Source: Escherichia coli (GTDB taxonomy: Bacteria > Pseudomonadota > Gammaproteobacteria > Enterobacterales > Enterobacteriaceae). From it: a stretch of 31,624 bases of DNA. The position numbers were made by a program, and so were the translations under genes. This document shows positions 2,750 through 19,056 of this stretch, in pieces (position 1 is the stretch's first letter; each line of letters opens with the position of its first letter). The notes under the pieces were generated by a model. That model saw only the letters and a list, made by a program, of their open reading frames with translations, did no database searches and had not been told where the DNA came from. The DNA lies in assembly GCF_003334765.1 (NCBI RefSeq), contig NZ_QOWT01000039.1, one strand, 5' to 3'.

Positions 2750-3952
2750 TCAGGACGACTTTGCTGCAATCAAATCCTGCGCACAAGCCCACGCACTCGA
2801 CCACGCCCACTGGAAGTTATAGCCCCCCAGCCAGCCGGTGACGTCCATCACTTCGCCGATGAAGTACAGCCCAGGCACTTTGCGCGCTTCCATCGTCCGT
2901 GAAGAGAGTTCGTTGGTGTCCACGCCGCCGAGCGTCACTTCGGCAGTGCGATAGCCTTCAGTGCCGTTGGGTTGTACGCGCCAGTCGGTCAATGTGCTAA
3001 TCAGTGCCTGTTGGTCACGCACGTTGAGCTGTTTTAGCGAAACATCCGGGATTTGCCCGAGTTGCTGTAAGCGTTCAACCAACCGCTTCGGTAGATGAAC
3101 CGCCAGTGTGTTTTTCAGGCTTTGATTCGGATGTGCGTTACGCTGCTCATTCAGGAAGGTTTCGAGGTCCACATCCGGTAGCAGATTGATGCTGACAAAT
3201 TCCCCCGGTTGCCAGTAGCTTGAAATCTGCAACACCGCCGGTCCAGACAAGCCGCGGTGGGTGAAGAGTAAGTTCTCACGGAAAACGGTGCCGTTTTCAG
3301 CGGTAATCACGGAAGGCACCGCCACGCCCGCCAGCACCTGTAACTCTTCGAGCAACGGTTTATGCAGAGTGAATGGCACCAGACCCGCGCGGGTCGGCAG
3401 CACGTTGAGGCCAAATTGTTCGGCAATCTTATAACCAAACGGCGACGCGCCCAGCCCCGGCATTGACAGCCCACCAGTCGCGATGACCAGCTTTTCGCAA
3501 CCGACAGTCATGCCGTTCAGATCAAGCGTGAAGCCTGTTTCATCCTTCGCCACACTCAGCACTTCGCTACGCAATCTGAAGGTCACATTGCCCTTCTCGC
3601 ACTCATCCACCAGCATGTCGACAATCTGCTGCGCGGAGTCATCGCAGAAGAGTTGCCCTAACGTTTTCTCGTGCCAGGCGATGCCGTGTTTATTGACCAG
3701 ATCAATGAAATCCCACTGGGTAAAACGTGCGAGTGCAGACTTACAAAAATGCGGATTCTGGCTCAGATAAGCGCCTGGTTCGACATAAAGGTTGGTAAAG
3801 TTGCAGCGCCCACCGCCAGACATAAGGATTTTGCGCCCTGGTTTTTTACCATTATCGATCAGCAGAACCCGGCGTCCTGCCTGACCTGCCAGCGCAGAAC
3901 AGAACATACCCGCCGCACCAGCGCCTATAATAATGGCATCAAACCTTTCCAC
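2750..3952 (-). CDS. yhiN: FAD-dependent oxidoreductase, HI0933/BaiN-like flavoprotein YhiN, 400 aa
   Basis: ORF 2750..3952. N-terminal dinucleotide-binding motif DAIIIGAGAAGMF. GTG start at 3950-3952 (reverse strand) with GAGGAG SD 6 nt upstream. Confidence 0.88.
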   Translation of the reverse strand: MERFDAIIIGAGAAGMFCSALAGQAGRRVLLIDNGKKPGRKILMSGGGRCNFTNLYVEPGAYLSQNPHFCKSALARFTQWDFIDLVNKHGIAWHEKTLGQLFCDDSAQQIVDMLVDECEKGNVTFRLRSEVLSVAKDETGFTLDLNGMTVGCEKLVIATGGLSMPGLGASPFGYKIAEQFGLNVLPTRAGLVPFTLHKPLLEELQVLAGVAVPSVITAENGTVFRENLLFTHRGLSGPAVLQISSYWQPGEFVSINLLPDVDLETFLNEQRNAHPNQSLKNTLAVHLPKRLVERLQQLGQIPDVSLKQLNVRDQQALISTLTDWRVQPNGTEGYRTAEVTLGGVDTNELSSRTMEARKVPGLYFIGEVMDVTGWLGGYNFQWAWSSAWACAQDLIAAKSS

Positions 3953-4183: not shown

Positions 4184-5683
4184 ATGCTACATTTGTTTGC
4201 TGGCCTGGATTTGCATACCGGGCTGTTATTATTGCTTGCACTGGCTTTTGTGCTGTTCTACGAAGCCATCAATGGTTTCCATGACACAGCCAACGCCGTG
4301 GCAACCGTTATCTATACCCGCGCGATGCGTTCTCAGCTCGCCGTGGTTATGGCGGCGGTATTCAACTTTTTGGGTGTTTTGCTGGGTGGTCTGAGTGTTG
4401 CCTATGCCATTGTGCATATGCTGCCGACGGATCTGCTGCTTAATATGGGATCGTCTCATGGCCTTGCCATGGTGTTCTCTATGTTGCTGGCGGCGATTAT
4501 CTGGAACCTGGGTACCTGGTACTTTGGTTTACCTGCATCCAGCTCTCATACGCTGATTGGCGCGATCATCGGGATTGGTTTAACCAATGCGTTGATGACC
4601 GGGACGTCAGTGGTGGATGCACTCAATATCCCGAAAGTATTAAGTATTTTCGGTTCTCTGATCGTTTCCCCTATTGTCGGCCTGGTGTTTGCTGGCGGTC
4701 TGATTTTCTTGCTGCGTCGCTACTGGAGCGGCACCAAGAAACGCGCCCGTATCCACCTGACCCCAGCGGAGCGTGAAAAGAAAGACGGCAAGAAAAAGCC
4801 GCCGTTCTGGACGCGTATTGCGCTGATCCTTTCCGCTATCGGCGTGGCGTTTTCGCACGGCGCGAACGATGGTCAGAAAGGCATTGGTCTGGTTATGTTG
4901 GTATTGATTGGCGTCGCGCCAGCAGGCTTCGTGGTGAACATGAATGCCACTGGCTACGAAATCACCCGTACCCGTGATGCCATCAACAACGTCGAAGCTT
5001 ACTTTGAGCAGCATCCTGCGCTGCTCAAACAGGCTACCGGTGCTGATCAGTTAGTACCGGCTCCGGAAGCTGGCGCAACGCAACCTGCGGAGTTCCACTG
5101 CCATCCGTCGAATACCATTAACGCGCTCAACCGCCTGAAAGGTATGTTGACCACCGATGTGGAAAGCTACGACAAGCTGTCGCTTGATCAACGTAGCCAG
5201 ATGCGCCGCATTATGCTGTGCGTTTCTGACACTATCGACAAAGTGGTGAAGATGCCTGGCGTGAGTGCTGACGATCAGCGCCTGTTGAAGAAACTGAAGT
5301 CCGACATGCTTAGCACCATCGAGTATGCACCGGTGTGGATCATCATGGCGGTCGCGCTGGCGTTAGGTATCGGTACGATGATTGGCTGGCGCCGTGTGGC
5401 AACGACTATCGGTGAGAAAATCGGTAAGAAAGGCATGACCTACGCTCAGGGGATGTCTGCCCAGATGACGGCGGCAGTGTCTATCGGCCTGGCGAGTTAT
5501 ACCGGGATGCCGGTTTCCACTACTCACGTACTCTCCTCTTCTGTCGCGGGGACGATGGTGGTAGATGGTGGCGGCTTACAGCGTAAAACCGTGACCAGCA
5601 TTCTGATGGCCTGGGTGTTTACCCTTCCGGCTGCGGTACTGCTTTCCGGCGGGCTGTACTGGCTCTCCTTGCAGTTCCTGTAA
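4184..5683 (+). CDS. pitA: Low-affinity inorganic phosphate transporter PitA (PiT family), 499 aa
   Basis: ORF 4184..5683 with ATG start. Polytopic membrane protein whose length and sequence match PitA as recalled. Confidence 0.93.
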
Positions 5684-5750
5684 TCGTACGCACCAAAACG
5701 AGCGGGTCAGCTGGCCCGCTTCAGATTGTGACATAGTGCGCTTTGTTCAT

Positions 5751-5849
5751 GCCGGATGCGGCGTGAACGCCTTATCCGGCCTACAAAAACATGCAAATTC
5801 AATAGATTGCAGAGATTATGTAGGCCTGATAAGCGTAGCGCATCAGGCA
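5751..5849. repeat. BIME / RIP-type element: two inverted REP sequences around a central spacer
   Basis: REP gccggatgcggcgtgaacgccttatccggcctaca (5751-5785) and inverted REP tgtaggcctgataagcgtagcgcatcaggca (5819-5849). Spacer contains ttcaatagattg, resembling an IHF site. Confidence 0.8.
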
Positions 5850-5870
5850 ATTTTGCGTTTGTAATCAGTC

Positions 5871-5903
5871 TCGAGCGGGTCAGTTTACTGGCCCGCTTTT
5901 TTT
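5871..5903 (+). terminator. Intrinsic terminator downstream of the pitA 3' REP region
   Basis: Hairpin gagcgggtcag...ctggcccgc followed by a T7 tract. A near-identical hairpin without a T tract lies at 5700-5721. Confidence 0.6.
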
Positions 5904-5926
5904 ATGCGTTATTATTGCTGAAGTGC

Positions 5927-6262
5927 TTAATGCCAAATCATCAATGCAATCAGGCTGACCACCACCAGACCACACAATGCGCTGGTCAGAATAAACTGCC
6001 GACGCACCCGCTCACAGCGGCGAATAAATTCATCATCGTGATGATCGCGATAACGTTGGGCATAGATATACCAAACGAGACGCACCTGTTTGTTGGGTTG
6101 GCCATGTGAGGTAAAAAAGCCCCCTCCATCAACATATTGATAGAGCAATGGATCGCAGTTACGCAGTACCACTAACAACGCGCGTAGTGATGAGAAATAG
6201 CGCGCCATGTTAACAATGCAAACGACACATAAAGCCCAAAATAATGCGACGGTGCTTATCAT
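5927..6262 (-). CDS. uspB: Universal stress protein B (UspB), 111 aa
   Basis: ORF 5927..6262. ATG at 6260-6262 (reverse strand) with GAGGAGGT SD. Small two-helix membrane protein of the known length. Confidence 0.92.
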
Positions 6263-6490
6263 ACCTCCTCCCCGGCGACCTGCCCGCGGAGTTCCACCCC
6301 GGGGCTACCGCTCCCGATACGCTGCCAATCAGTTAACACCAGGTCCTGGAGAAACCGCTTTTGTGGTGACCAACATACGAGCGGCTCTATAGATAGTGTA
6401 GGAGATCAGGTTGTTTTTTTTCCAGAAGGTTAACCACTATCAATATATTCATGTCGAAAATTTGTTTATCTAACGAGTAAGCAAGGCGGA

Positions 6491-6519
6491 TTGACGGATC
6501 ATCCGGGTCGCTATAAGGT
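6491..6519 (+). promoter_or_regulatory. Putative sigma70 promoter of uspA
   Basis: TTGACG (6491-6496) followed by a TATAAG-type -10 element (6512-6517), about 135 nt upstream of the uspA ATG. Exact hexamer register is uncertain. Confidence 0.45.
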
Positions 6520-6652
6520 AAGGATGGTCTTAACACTGAATCTTTACGGCTGGGTTAGCCCCGCGCACGTAGTTCGCAGGACGCGGGTGACGTAACGGCA
6601 CAAGAAACGCTAGCTGGCCAGTCATCGACAACTTTATGGAAGGAGTAACACT

Positions 6653-7145: not shown

Positions 7146-7159
7146 GCGCCTTGTTACCT

Positions 7160-7200
7160 GATCAGCGTAAACACCTTATCTGGCCTACGGTCTGCGTACG
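7160..7200. repeat. Degenerate REP-like element
   Basis: Sequence ...cgtaaacaccttatctggcctacgg... resembles the REP consensus seen at 5751 and 17254. Confidence 0.4.
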
Positions 7201-7403
7201 CAATCAAAATCCCCAGCCAATACAACATTTAACACCATCATATTTTCCATCATTAGTGTGATCATCTGGTTATTTTCTTTTGTAATAGTGTATTAATCTA
7301 TTCACCGCATCAATATTAAGAATCTCTGACAGATGTAAACTTTTTCGCGCGTTATCCCTTACGCGTTCATACTTTTCAGGATGGTATTGGAAGGTTAATA
7401 AAT

Positions 7404-14603: not shown

Positions 14604-14687
14604 GTTAGATGATGGCTATCTCACTCCAGTCAGAGCCACCAACTCAGGGCTGGAAAGTAAAAAACCGACGCAAAGTCGGTTTTTTTA
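14604..14687 (+). ncRNA. agrA: AgrA small RNA (DinQ-associated antisense-type sRNA, paralog of AgrB)
   Basis: Putative promoter TTGCAA (14569-14574), 17 nt, TAGCAT. Ends at hairpin ccgacgcaaagtcgg plus T7 (14665-14687). Near-duplicate of the agrB module. 5' end is approximate. Confidence 0.7.
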
Positions 14688-14834
14688 CATCCGGATTCGG
14701 ACAAGGCTTAATATGACGATGACCCAGTGAAAGTATATAAATCGTCACTGCGATATATACCGAAGTGCTCCCTCCGCCAGCTGAAGAAATCGCTAATTCT
14801 TGCAATGTTAGCCACTGGCTAATAGTATTGAGCT

Positions 14835-14917
14835 GTTAGATAAGAACTCTCTCACTCCAGCCAGAGCCACCAACTCAGGGCTGGAAAGTAAAAAACCGAC
14901 GCAAAGTCGGTTTTTTT
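14835..14917 (+). ncRNA. agrB: AgrB small RNA (antitoxin sRNA complementary to the dinQ mRNA leader)
   Basis: Promoter TTGCAA (14800-14805), 17 nt, TAGTAT (14823-14828). Body tgttagataagaactctctcactccagccagagcc is near-identical to + strand 14403-14437 inside the dinQ transcript region, so it is complementary to dinQ mRNA. Ends at hairpin plus T7 (14895-14917). 5' end is approximate. Confidence 0.75.
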
Positions 14918-14999
14918 ACGTCCTGATTCAGACCTCCTTTCAAATGAATAGCCAACTCAAAATTCACACCTATTACCTTCCTCTGCACTTACACATTCG

Positions 15000-15476: not shown

Positions 15477-16766
15477 ATGTTACTGGCAGGCGCTATCTTT
15501 GTCCTGACCATCGTATTGGTTATCTGGCAGCCGAAAGGTTTAGGCATCGGCTGGAGTGCAACGCTCGGCGCAGTACTGGCGTTAGTTACGGGCGTGGTCC
15601 ATCCGGGTGATATTCCGGTGGTGTGGAATATCGTCTGGAACGCGACGGCTGCGTTTATCGCCGTCATTATCATCAGCCTGCTGCTGGATGAGTCCGGCTT
15701 TTTTGAATGGGCGGCGCTGCACGTCTCACGCTGGGGTAATGGTCGTGGTCGCTTGTTGTTTACCTGGATTGTCCTGCTCGGTGCTGCCGTTGCCGCCCTG
15801 TTTGCCAATGATGGCGCGGCGCTTATTTTGACACCGATTGTCATCGCCATGCTGCTGGCTTTAGGGTTCAGTAAAGGCACTACGCTGGCGTTCGTGATGG
15901 CGGCCGGATTCATTGCCGATACCGCCAGCCTGCCGCTTATTGTCTCCAACCTGGTGAATATCGTTTCCGCTGATTTCTTTGGCCTCGGCTTTCGCGAATA
16001 CGCCTCGGTGATGGTGCCGGTGGATATCGCCGCGATTGTTGCCACGCTGGTGATGTTACATCTCTATTTTCGCAAAGATATTCCGCAGAACTACGATATG
16101 GCGCTGCTGAAATCTCCCGCAGAAGCGATCAAAGATCCTGCTACGTTCAAAACTGGCTGGGTTGTTTTACTGCTTCTGCTGGTGGGATTTTTCGTCCTGG
16201 AACCGCTCGGCATTCCGGTGAGCGCCATTGCAGCTGTGGGCGCGCTGATATTATTTGTCGTCGCTAAACGCGGTCATGCGATTAATACGGGTAAAGTCCT
16301 GCGCGGTGCCCCCTGGCAGATTGTCATCTTCTCGCTCGGCATGTATCTGGTGGTTTATGGCCTGCGCAATGCCGGATTAACGGAATATCTTTCTGGCGTA
16401 CTCAACGTGCTGGCGGATAACGGCCTGTGGGCCGCGACGCTCGGCACCGGATTCCTCACCGCCTTCCTCTCTTCTATTATGAACAATATGCCGACGGTAC
16501 TGGTTGGCGCGTTGTCCATTGATGGCAGCACGGCATCTGGCGTTATCAAAGAAGCGATGGTTTATGCCAATGTGATTGGCTGCGATTTGGGACCGAAAAT
16601 TACCCCAATTGGTAGCCTGGCTACGCTACTCTGGCTGCACGTACTTTCGCAGAAGAATATGACTATCAGCTGGGGATATTACTTCCGTACAGGGATTATC
16701 ATGACCCTGCCTGTGCTGTTTGTGACGCTGGCTGCGCTGGCGCTACGTCTCTCTTTCACTTTGTAA
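15477..16766 (+). CDS. arsB: Arsenite/antimonite efflux pump ArsB, 429 aa
   Basis: ORF-track frame 15456..16766. ATG at 15477 with GGGAGG SD gives the known 429 aa. Polytopic membrane protein. Confidence 0.93.
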
Positions 16767-16778
16767 TGAGATACTGAT

Positions 16779-17204
16779 ATGAGCAACATTACCATTTATC
16801 ACAACCCGGCCTGCGGCACGTCGCGTAATACGCTGGAGATGATCCGCAACAGCGGCACAGAACCGACCATTATCCATTATCTGGAAACTCCGCCAACGCG
16901 CGATGAACTGGTCAAACTCATTGCCGATATGGGGATTTCCGTACGCGCGCTGCTGCGTAAAAACGTCGAACCGTATGAGGAGCTGGGCCTTGCGGAAGAT
17001 AAATTTACTGACGATCGGTTAATCGACTTTATGCTTCAGCACCCGATTCTGATTAATCGCCCGATTGTGGTGACGCCGCTGGGAACTCGCCTGTGCCGCC
17101 CTTCAGAAGTGGTGCTGGAAATTCTGCCAGATGCGCAAAAAGGCGCATTCTCCAAGGAAGATGGCGAGAAAGTGGTTGATGAAGCGGGTAAGCGCCTGAA
17201 ATAA
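16779..17204 (+). CDS. arsC: Arsenate reductase ArsC (glutaredoxin-coupled), 141 aa
   Basis: ORF 16779..17204. Catalytic Cys in the N-terminal CGTSRNT motif. Follows arsB by 12 nt. Confidence 0.95.
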   Translation: MSNITIYHNPACGTSRNTLEMIRNSGTEPTIIHYLETPPTRDELVKLIADMGISVRALLRKNVEPYEELGLAEDKFTDDRLIDFMLQHPILINRPIVVTPLGTRLCRPSEVVLEILPDAQKGAFSKEDGEKVVDEAGKRLK

Positions 17205-17253
17205 AGCGGCGATATCCCCCCCACAGGTTGTTAGAAAAGTGCGCTTTATTTAT

Positions 17254-17354
17254 GTCGGATGCGACGCTGGCGCGTCTTATCCGACCTACAAAGTTATGAA
17301 AATTCGATGAATAGTATGTTATTTGTAGGCCTGACAGGCGTAGCGCATCAGGCG
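17254..17354. repeat. BIME / RIP-type element (two inverted REPs) downstream of arsC
   Basis: REP gtcggatgcgacgctggcgcgtcttatccgacctaca (17254-17290) and inverted REP tgtaggcctgacaggcgtagcgcatcaggcg (17324-17354). Spacer resembles that of the 5751-5849 element. Confidence 0.8.
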
Positions 17355-17832
17355 ATTTTGCTATTTACACAGTACTCCCTGCGTGAGATTCCAATTATCG
17401 CGTCCAGCATGGTGTATCAGTGAGCTGCTTAGTTATCAGCGATACAGCGCAGTAGTTTAAAGACGTACTGGATTATGATTTATCAGTGGTTTACACAACA
17501 AATTATTAAATAATTATAAGATACCTTAACCCATTTTATTATTACACATCTAAAACATCACAAAAAAAATCACTTCACACACTATCAGAGAACATAATAA
17601 CTTTTTAAAATGAGCGCATTTTGATAGTTGTTAACGATTTCCTTTACGATACTATCACTACCCTTTTTTTACACACAAATATTACCGGGTGGAGATAAAA
17701 GGGAAATCAAAGGTAATTATATCAGGAAGATATAACGCATTACATTTATTGTGTGTAGAAGAAAATCCATTCCTGTTCTAATTATCCAATTTAAACATCT
17801 TAGCATAAAACAAATGATGAATAAGGAATTTT

Positions 17833-19056
17833 ATGTCAATTGACTTTACCCCAGGTATAATAAATACATATCACGGCGATATTTATAACTGCACAACAAA
17901 TACCGATAATGCTAAAACGCCAGACACACCGAAGTGGCCTTGCGATAATTGGGAAGAACAACAACCCATTAATTCCACATTCTCTGGAGAAGGATATATC
18001 TCTGATCAATATGATTTAGCGCAACACCAACTTCAACAAATTAATGCGTGCCACACGAACACTACATATACAAATGCAGACTACTCAAAAGTTGTGGCTC
18101 AACTTGTAAGTCTTATTACTAACATTGAAACGATAAGTTCGACACAACTTACGCAACAGACACAATCAATACTTAATCAGATTAATAACATTAGATATGA
18201 AAAAAACAAAAGTGCTGAATGTCGAATCATTGTTATCGCTAATCCTAAACCCGACAAGGCAATCATAACTAAAATTAGCGTAGAAGAGGGAATACCCATA
18301 ACATTCAGTGTCCAAACCATGTTTTCAGATACTAATTTTATTGCTGAACAACGAGCTGACTTACCAACTAATATAAAAGATATTCAAAGCCTGTATCAAA
18401 AAATGACGAAGTTATATATTGAGCACAGTGAAAATAAAAACAGGATGAAAGTCTTTGCCGGAACCAACTTTATTGATTTCAATATGACAGGACAGAACCT
18501 GTCCGGGTTCGTTCTAACCTTGTCAAGGTTTTATTTCGAAGATCTACTTAATATAAATTTCACTGACGCAAATTTAGGTGACACTATTTTTTTACATAAA
18601 GAACACCCTACCCCCAAATTATATAAAGATGGACAATATCTTGACAAACAAATCGAAGGTTTATTTTCAACATTATTAACCATTAATGACAACCTTTTAC
18701 GAGCAAAAGCGGAAATTGCTTCGACAATAATTAAATTTTTAGAGGCCAGGATAACCAATCTTTCATACAATGACATATTAAAATATCAGCAAGAATTCCA
18801 AAAACAATGTTATAAGCAAGTTAAAGCCTTTACGACACTCTCCCGATACAATAAAATTCAAACATGGGCAGAAATGTCTGAATATCAATTCGAAGTATTT
18901 CAATACGAGACGCTTAACCCAAAAAAAATGTCACACACGCCTTATTTAAAGAGGCCACTGCCTAATGAAAAAGATATAAATTATGGGGTGGAAATAGAAA
19001 TACCATCTGGTAAAAGAATTCGCTTATCAAATCATTACCAGAATATAATACCATAA
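17833..19056 (+). CDS. yhiS: Uncharacterised AT-rich protein YhiS, uninterrupted 407 aa, with a pentapeptide-repeat-like central segment
   Basis: ORF 17833..19056 with AAGGAA SD. Lies between arsC and slp as yhiS does in E. coli. Markedly AT-rich, N/Q/T-rich protein. No IS sequence interrupts it here. Confidence 0.8.

Follow-up and report, generated by a model that had tools for sequence, protein, structure and literature searches.

The window, by which we mean the whole 31,624-nt stretch of Escherichia coli DNA analysed here, spans the pitA-uspBA-prlC-gor-arsRBC-yhiS-slp-hdeAB-gadE-mdtEF-gadWX region, as judged from the layout of its open reading frames, from Rfam matches (AgrB twice, ES205, GadY and ES036) and from 100% megablast matches to complete genomes. 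The arsC gene ends at 17204 and yhiS, the next open reading frame, starts at 17833. The stretch between them holds one of the window's two REP doublets; the other lies downstream of pitA, and a lone REP completes the inventory for the whole window. This lone, diverged REP (7146-7205) is found ~60 nt past the uspA stop codon and reaches 18.2 bits against the BIME-1 profile described below, through the Y-REP part of the profile only. At both the ars and the pitA element locus, the copy of the NC_000913.3 annotation consulted here is free of repeat features. A tandem pair of AgrB-type antisense RNA genes stands upstream of arsR (14605-14688 and 14836-14919; Rfam, 106 and 108 bits), which we take to be the ordinary expectation for the dinQ-agrAB locus.

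The ars element is a single extragenic doublet at the 3' end of a transcription unit, without a tandem array. A sequence-only reading of this DNA had described two inverted REPs flanking a spacer at 17254-17354, and our analysis confirmed a Y-type and a Z1-type REP hairpin around a 35-nt linker, 34 of whose 35 bases had been quoted correctly. The Y-type REP, in inverted orientation (iREP), occupies 17254-17289 on the plus strand, with a hairpin at 17254-17285 followed by CTAC at 17286-17289. It reads TGTCGGATGCG...CTTATCCGACCTAC, has the Y-type G...C at the discriminating stem position, carries an upper stem 2 nt longer than the family consensus, and folds as RNA at -20.8 kcal/mol (z = -5.0). 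The Z1-type REP (17325-17354, plus strand) begins with GTAG (17325-17328) and continues with a hairpin at 17329-17353; it is of the short Z1 form GTAGGCCTGACAGGCGTAGCGCATCAGGC, and its predicted fold is -12.3 kcal/mol (z = -2.0). Between the two lies the L linker (17290-17324, plus strand), diverged as judged by its weight-matrix score, by the Rfam model ES036 and by its identity to the pitA linker.

The element exceeds the interval first assigned to it. Conserved terminal segments extend it from ~17224 to ~17361, placing the start of the element 20 nt past the arsC stop codon and its first REP 50 nt past. The left terminal segment, CAGGTTGTTAGAAAAGTGCGCTTTATTTAT (17224-17253, plus strand), matches the left end of the family, CAGATTGCTGACAAAGTGCGCTTTGTTCTT, as well as other E. 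coli copies. The right flank (ATTTTGC; 17355-17361, plus strand) is shortened, and the family continuation GTTTGTCATCAGTCTC is absent. Family members end with CAGATTG...GTGCGC on the left and TTTTGCGTTTGTCATCAGTCTC on the right; the ars copy retains the former and follows the latter only to TTTTGC. Beyond this hexamer runs regulator-gene coding sequence common to the element-free allele considered below, which has TTTTGC at the same point as part of the coding sequence. Outside the REPs, the ars and pitA elements share AGTGCGCTTTrTTyATG to the left and ATTTTGC to the right. The arsC stop-codon region (17199-17208, AAATAAAGCG) can also pair perfectly over 10 nt with the left terminal segment (17242-17251, CGCTTTATTT); this inverted repeat is probably fortuitous, because the predicted stem is no stabler than that of shuffled sequences (z = -0.19).

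To place the element in its family we applied the definition of BIME-1 as one Y and one Z1 REP with a long, well-conserved L linker, present in single copy and ~140 bp in length (PMC3333891, PMC1187871). The family was sampled by its REP ends only, in one scan of 100,044 species genomes with the pattern ATCCGGCCTAC-N30-40-GTAGGCCTGA. This returned at least 128 matches; Escherichia albertii and Pseudocitrobacter supplied most of those listed and Citrobacter and Kosakonia a few, and 78 of the 128 matches listed had exactly 35 nt between the REPs. The consensus of the sampled copies is the classical BIME-1: a Y REP, the linker AAAATCGTGCAAATTCAATATATTGCAGAAACCTT, a Z1 REP and conserved outer segments. 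From the matches listed, 77 independent copies of other enterobacteria were used to build a profile and a linker weight matrix. The 146-position profile (nhmmer) detected 17235-17368 with 89.7 bits (E = 1.8e-27) and the pitA element, at 5730-5872, with 152.9 bits. The linker matrix gave 9.4 bits for ars versus 38.7 for pitA. The ars score ranks third among 63,178 window positions and was reached by none of 20,000 shuffles; within the family it falls in the low tail (median 38.2, 5th percentile -1.4). A further weak match of the linker matrix, at 23030-23064, was dismissed for lack of adjoining REPs. By architecture, linker matrix and profile, then, the ars element belongs to the same BIME subclass as the pitA element, as had been proposed, and we are confident that it is a BIME-1 (RIP/RIB), one of the E. 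coli REP doublets that occur in single copy, and that its decay is far advanced. It is thus a repeat of an already known kind in a much-studied genome.

The pitA element provided a full-length comparator. It runs from CAGATTG to CAGTCT at 5722-5871 on the plus strand, with its REPs and linker at 5750-5849, the 35-nt linker at 5785-5819, and copies of a terminator hairpin on both sides (5699-5721 and 5872-5898). The two elements share the order Y REP, linker, Z1 REP, the strand, the linker length and a position 3' of a plus-strand gene. Unlike the ars copy, the pitA copy is near consensus, has an IHF core with only the mismatch typical of the family, and keeps both terminal segments and both copies of its duplicated terminator hairpin. 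As with the ars copy, its insertion is polymorphic among E. coli genomes: the junction from pitA through the element to uspB is covered to at least 80% in just 1942 of 5426 complete E. coli genomes. In megablast searches the pitA copy found at least 40 places per genome, versus 2-3 for the ars copy.

The resemblance noted earlier between the ars spacer and that of the pitA 3' element is borne out by ungapped alignment, in which 20 of 35 linker positions are identical, a value attained by 193 of 200,000 shuffles. The ars linker is, however, no closer to pitA than to the family generally (mean identity to family members 18.4 of 35, maximum 24), and we therefore read the likeness as family membership and reject a special kinship between the two, their identity not rising above the family level.

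Two Rfam small-RNA families also give matches here. The consensus of ES036 (RF02751, CssrF) is the BIME-1 L linker, and naRNA4 (CssrE) has in its 3' half what corresponds to a REP hairpin of generic type; it matches 17253-17285 through the REP part of the model, at 31 bits, under its threshold. Both models act as repeat models in this setting, and we accordingly read their hits as BIME or REP copies. That the ars linker should instead encode a small RNA of the CssrF type seems to us very improbable. The ES036 model does align end to end with 17290-17332, and the pitA copy (match at 5787-5827) exceeds the gathering score of 37.6 bits, with 42 bits; the O157 and D6 ars alleles score 36.2 and 28.2. 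Set against this, the ars copy of the window scores only 20.2 bits (E = 0.17 in a 401-nt search), four of the eight stem pairs of the model are non-standard in its alignment, the model's consensus is simply that of the BIME-1 linker, and no promoter-like site was found upstream inside the element. A literature search for CssrF/ES036 gave unrelated papers only.

We then considered the IHF site for which the class is known. BIME-1 linkers are described as "frequently" carrying one (PMC3333891), a wording from which we take the site to be typical, not obligatory. At the family position that corresponds to the IHF consensus WATCARNNNNTTR, the BIME-1 consensus is ATTCAATATATTG, with one family-wide mismatch; exactly that single mismatch is present in 60 of the 77 copies, and the CA and TT elements are both kept in 64 of 77. 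These two elements are the most conserved parts of IHF sites in genome-wide IHF footprinting (PMC8407004). The pitA core, ATTCAATAGATTG, has one mismatch. The homologous ars sequence, ATTCGATGAATAG (17302-17314, plus strand), which corresponds to 3,650,760-3,650,772 of NC_000913.3, is a degenerate remnant with three mismatches, among them CA to CG and TT to TA, and just 7 of the 77 family copies are equally poor. A plain IHF consensus discriminates weakly, the window containing 51 sites at one mismatch or fewer versus 38.6 expected, and the core was for this reason judged by homology of family position and by shuffles. On either strand of the ars linker the best site has two mismatches and is equalled by 77% of shuffles, and a pattern search allowing at most one mismatch found the pitA core and nothing in the ars linker. 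The suggestion that the ars spacer holds an IHF-binding core is thus not supported: its core has lost CA and TT, and a scan of the spacer gave nothing above background.

With the core decayed and no site better than shuffles, weak or no specific IHF binding is predicted, and sequence-specific binding at the ars linker has probably been weakened or lost. IHF nevertheless accepts imperfect sites, with a preference for bendable, AT-rich DNA, and since the ars linker is 80% A+T, some binding there may persist.

Alignment of thirteen alleles of the locus showed how variable this core is. The class that includes K-12 (MG1655) and the window has the core ATTCGATGAATAG; the ATCC 25922 type (ATCC 25922, strain 9 and 23AR0151) has ATTCGATGAATTG; the O157 type (O157 NE92, EC20 and ECGC74) has ATTCAATAAATTG, which is canonical with one mismatch; and a regulator-bearing type (OkiPb01684 and D6) combines ATTCAATATATGG with an 8-nt deletion in the Z1 REP. 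OkiPb01675 and AR_0015 represent a core-deleted type, with an 11-nt deletion of the core in addition to the Z1 deletion, and CREC-544 represents a class without the element. The element-bearing ars region is covered to at least 80% in 3876 complete genomes and the K-12-type junction from arsC through the element to yhiS in 3168, and 214 of 5426 have the junction uninterrupted, without the element. The ars element is therefore polymorphic for presence among E. coli isolates, like the presence or absence of whole BIME-1 elements that PMC1187871 relates on the authority of Bachellier 1997.

Insertion sequences have also entered this stretch in single strains. An IS903B lies immediately right of the element in strain 23AR0151, at ~17381, with an IS end that reads GGCTTTGTTGAATAAATCAG, and an IS1A lies inside the arsC-yhiS stretch of strain 4588 (in a search with 16800-18000).

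These alleles bear on whether the element still works as a RIP, with IHF bound to the linker and bending the DNA between the REPs, for chromosome organisation or to insulate supercoils between ars and DNA of the AT-rich, H-NS-type kind. Its Y-L-Z1 architecture, 35-nt spacing and two hairpins are intact, its linker is AT-rich, the O157-type orthologue keeps a canonical core, and BIME-1 linkers are reported to bind IHF by PMC2817692 and PMC3333891, which cite Boccard and Prentki 1993. We nonetheless regard such a function as unlikely at the ars locus, given a core with three mismatches at positions that include CA and TT, a linker in which no site beats shuffles, and several E. coli lineages that have deleted the core, part of the Z1 REP or the entire element, which speaks against selective constraint. 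The linker and Z1 REP have been eroded repeatedly and independently, arguing against constraint on an IHF site here.

The right side of the element adjoins a gene remnant. On the minus strand, 17348-17417 is the 3' end of an ArsR/SmtB-family regulator gene, whose stop codon (TCA on the plus strand, 17348-17350) falls inside the Z1 REP; its translation, ending ...YTMLDAIIGISRREYCVNSKIA before the stop, matches ...QYAMLEAIIEFLREECCVNSKIA at the end of the intact 98-aa regulator gene in an E. coli sequence that retains it (L002). Next comes a 65-nt stretch (17418-17482), the start of the AT-rich DNA, which replaces a 1575-nt segment with regulator and permease genes in other E. coli. Alignment to L002 pairs 16700-17417 with 2901-3608 and 17483-18915 with 5184-6606. 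Most genomes without the K-12-type junction have, between the element and yhiS, a minus-strand gene for the 98-aa ArsR/SmtB regulator together with a divergently oriented permease gene, whose product is assigned to Pfam ArsP_1 via a close homologue; in all, about one third of E. coli genomes carry this 1.6-kb module between the element and the AT-rich DNA. The pair lies at 3539-4943 of L002 and at 1262-2824 of a second sequence (L134), and is missing beside arsRBC from K-12-type genomes. A close homologue of the pair is flanked by IS26-type and IS1 elements and neighbours a resolvase gene, so the pair is mobile.

The sequence-only reading had further proposed that the element lies at a possible junction of an acquired segment. 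The fall in GC is real, from 0.52 in arsRBC to 0.30 at 17418-17832 and 0.34 in yhiS (0.49 in the regulator gene and 0.46 in the permease gene), but it starts ~60-120 nt right of the element, past the 70-nt regulator remnant, and the break lies at 17417/17483; the element is no island boundary. Adjacency of arsC, element and yhiS does vary across genomes, as a comparison of the junction revealed, and the AT-rich block has an identical left edge with or without the 1.6-kb module. Since the module separates the element from the AT-rich DNA in other genomes, the present adjacency and the GC step are a deletion scar and not a boundary marked by the element.

Could the element nevertheless mark the edge of an AT-rich segment gained by horizontal transfer, or have given rise to that edge, perhaps by serving as a hot spot for recombination or integration? 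GC drops from ~0.5 to ~0.3 within ~100 nt of it, one deletion end point is 56 nt away, IS903B and IS1 have inserted nearby in single strains, and some IS elements are reported to target REPs (PMC1525189). We consider this improbable all the same, because homology and composition break past the regulator remnant and not at the REP, because genomes that keep the regulator and permease have the element ~1.7 kb from the AT-rich DNA and yet the same AT-rich boundary, and because insertion at the arsC terminator accounts for where the element lies.

The evidence for such an insertion comes from alleles without the element. There, arsC is followed by a terminator-like hairpin, AAGGGGGATATGCCCCCTT, and then by ATTTGTTCTT; in the element-free allele L010, AAAGGGGGATATGCCCCCTT scores as a terminator. 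Element-bearing alleles have in its place a decayed hairpin, AAAGCGGCGATATCCCCCCCA, followed directly by CAGGTTGTTAGAAAAGTGCGC, the left end of the family. In the window this decayed left copy of the arsC intrinsic-terminator hairpin lies at 17204-17223 (plus strand) and aligns with AAAGGGGGATATGCCCCCTT; it is presumably the remnant of a target duplication. No terminator-like site after arsC was found in window positions 17000-17900.

The regulator gene indicates which state is older. In the element-free allele it encodes 106 aa, ending ...CCVNSKTHGEGATKNK, and a second family of element-free alleles has a 107-aa regulator, ending ...SKTDVAEHAGKNG, in an IS-flanked context with the permease. 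The long tails of these regulators, SKTHGEGATKNK and SKTDVAEHAGKNG, are homologous; homologues in other genera are conserved only up to ECC(V/I)N. As the long tail is shared by element-free alleles, one of them IS-flanked and mobile, it would predate the element, and the SKIA ending of the regulator in element-bearing alleles would be derived. Parsimony and this comparison of tails lead us to infer that the polarity is that of insertion, and not of precise loss in the 214 element-free genomes.

A similar arrangement recurs in the family. Around many BIME-1 copies, an intrinsic-terminator hairpin peculiar to the locus is duplicated as a direct repeat, in the order hairpin, CAGATTG...CAGTCTC, hairpin and T-run. 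The pitA locus is an example with both states at hand. The empty site, in O157 NE92 (L137, 1259-1328), has a single terminator hairpin, CGAGCGGGTCAGTTTACTGGCCCGCTTTTTTT, and the filled site in the window (5699-5905) has 173 extra nt, made up of an imperfect hairpin copy at 5699-5721 and the 150-nt element at 5722-5871, after which come the full hairpin and T-tract. Among other E. coli copies, the one between yqjF and yqjG (L139) shows the same pattern, that between rlmC and artJ has a left hairpin only, and that between fepA and entD has none.

We quantified the pattern at 63 de-duplicated BIME-1 loci of relatives (within L011-L130), with 3906 mismatched pairs as the control. A flanking direct repeat scoring 10 or more was present at 25 of the 63 loci (40%), versus 0.74% of the mismatched pairs. 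The repeats at these 25 loci have a median length of 21 nt, 22 of them fold as hairpins, and in 15 a T-run follows the right copy. Each is peculiar to its locus and covers the hairpin in full, from one foot to the other. End motifs are present on both sides at 37 loci; there, a hairpin at least as stable as -8 kcal/mol abuts the element on the left in 23 cases, on the right in 21 and on either side in 28; 40 nt further out at the same loci, the counts are 2 and 3. The pattern is well supported. We found no description of it in the accessible literature, a search that stopped short of the BIME papers of the 1990s, and its novelty is uncertain. Co-location of REPs with bidirectional terminators has been reported (bioRxiv 10.64898/2026.03.23.713779). 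The left junction of the window, a decayed hairpin followed by CAGGTTG, fits the family signature of a hairpin followed by CAGATTG seen at pitA, at yqjF-yqjG and at the 25 of 63 loci of relatives.

Taken with the element-free allele, this makes it most likely that the ars element entered at the foot of the hairpin that terminated arsC. The history of the locus could then have run in four steps. First, the element would have inserted at the 3' foot of the arsC intrinsic terminator hairpin, between the convergent arsC and ArsR/SmtB-type regulator genes. A small deletion between two TTTTGC hexamers, which we propose from one shared hexamer, may then have cost the element its right end and the regulator gene its last 10 codons, together with the second hairpin copy, leaving the Z1 REP to supply the stop codon. 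Third, in the K-12-like lineage of the window, a 1.6-kb deletion would have taken the regulator and the divergent ArsP-type permease and left about 60-120 nt between the element and AT-rich DNA; the same deletion state also occurs in O157 and ATCC 25922. Finally, point mutations would have destroyed the IHF core of the linker.

Comparison with known systems helps to define what kind of element this is. In the terms used for BIME-1, RIP (repetitive IHF-binding palindromic element) and RIB (reiterative ihf BIME) in E. coli and its relatives, the ars copy has one Y and one Z1 REP, inverted, with GTAG and CTAC facing a 35-nt L linker, and the left terminal segment of the family; it is single and extragenic, at an operon 3' end and originally between convergent genes, and its presence varies among isolates. 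It differs in its strongly diverged linker (in the low tail of the matrix scores and under the ES036 threshold), its lost IHF core, its shortened right terminal segment and the two extra nucleotides of its Y REP upper stem.

REPINs, REP doublets whose mobilisation is ascribed to RAYT/TnpA-REP transposases, are alike in being inverted REP doublets with a spacer, non-coding, dispersed and polymorphic. For single-strand transposition of the IS200/IS605 type, no target duplication is expected, and large ones are described as absent (PMC2817692); BIME-1 copies differ from REPINs in that a hairpin of 16-38 nt is often duplicated around them. The likeness to MITEs (miniature inverted-repeat transposable elements) lies in a length of ~150 nt, imperfect terminal inverted segments (CAGATTGCTGACAAA... 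and ...TTTGTCATCAGTCTC) and flanking direct repeats of target origin, and the difference in a duplication that has no fixed length and spans the whole target hairpin from foot to foot. A review finds REPs to be without MITE signatures (PMC3184786).

These comparisons lead to a reading that we offer tentatively, and hold to be possible though somewhat less probable than its negation: that the ars element is a fossil of a general mode of BIME-1 insertion, in which a unit of ~150 nt (CAGATTG...CAGTCTC) enters at the 3' foot of a terminator hairpin and duplicates the whole hairpin. Under such a mode the length of the target duplication would vary, being set by DNA structure and not by a fixed stagger, and the upstream hairpin copy would be parted from its T-tract, which the downstream copy would retain. 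A conceivable route, and a speculative one, is insertion at an extruded cruciform with a resolution that leaves a full palindrome on each side. If the reading is right, BIME-1 would be a structure-targeted mobile element that rewires operon 3' ends. If the pattern is new, the flanking hairpins would give a concrete, testable signature of insertion for this family of repeats, and how the family spreads is a question that goes back to the 1980s.

As for a present role, REPs in 3' untranslated regions are described as mRNA stabilisers and as partial Rho-dependent terminators (bioRxiv 10.64898/2026.03.23.713779; PMC3333891). Both ars REP hairpins would lie in the 3' untranslated region of the arsRBC transcript, in the place of the former intrinsic terminator. 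By this analogy, the ars REPs would most likely block the progress of 3' exonucleases along that transcript and serve as leaky terminators with partial Rho dependence.

The ars element also carries a caution, in that a RIP label given from architecture alone may cover an element without a usable IHF site. Its orthologues, which range from canonical to core-deleted across lineages, form a natural allelic series for the relevance of the IHF site in BIME-1. For the locus itself, the comparison puts on record that K-12-type strains have lost a module of an ArsR-like regulator and an ArsP-type permease beside arsRBC, that the intrinsic terminator of arsRBC was in all likelihood lost to an insertion, and that the GC step after arsC is a scar of deletion. 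To the right of that scar, yhiS (17833-19056) is an intact 407-aa open reading frame in the window; it is a two-piece pseudogene in the MG1655 annotation, and the annotations of O157 and several further genomes mark a frameshift in it. The yhiS stretch is also the more diverged between lineages, at 86.8% identity versus 95-100% for arsC.
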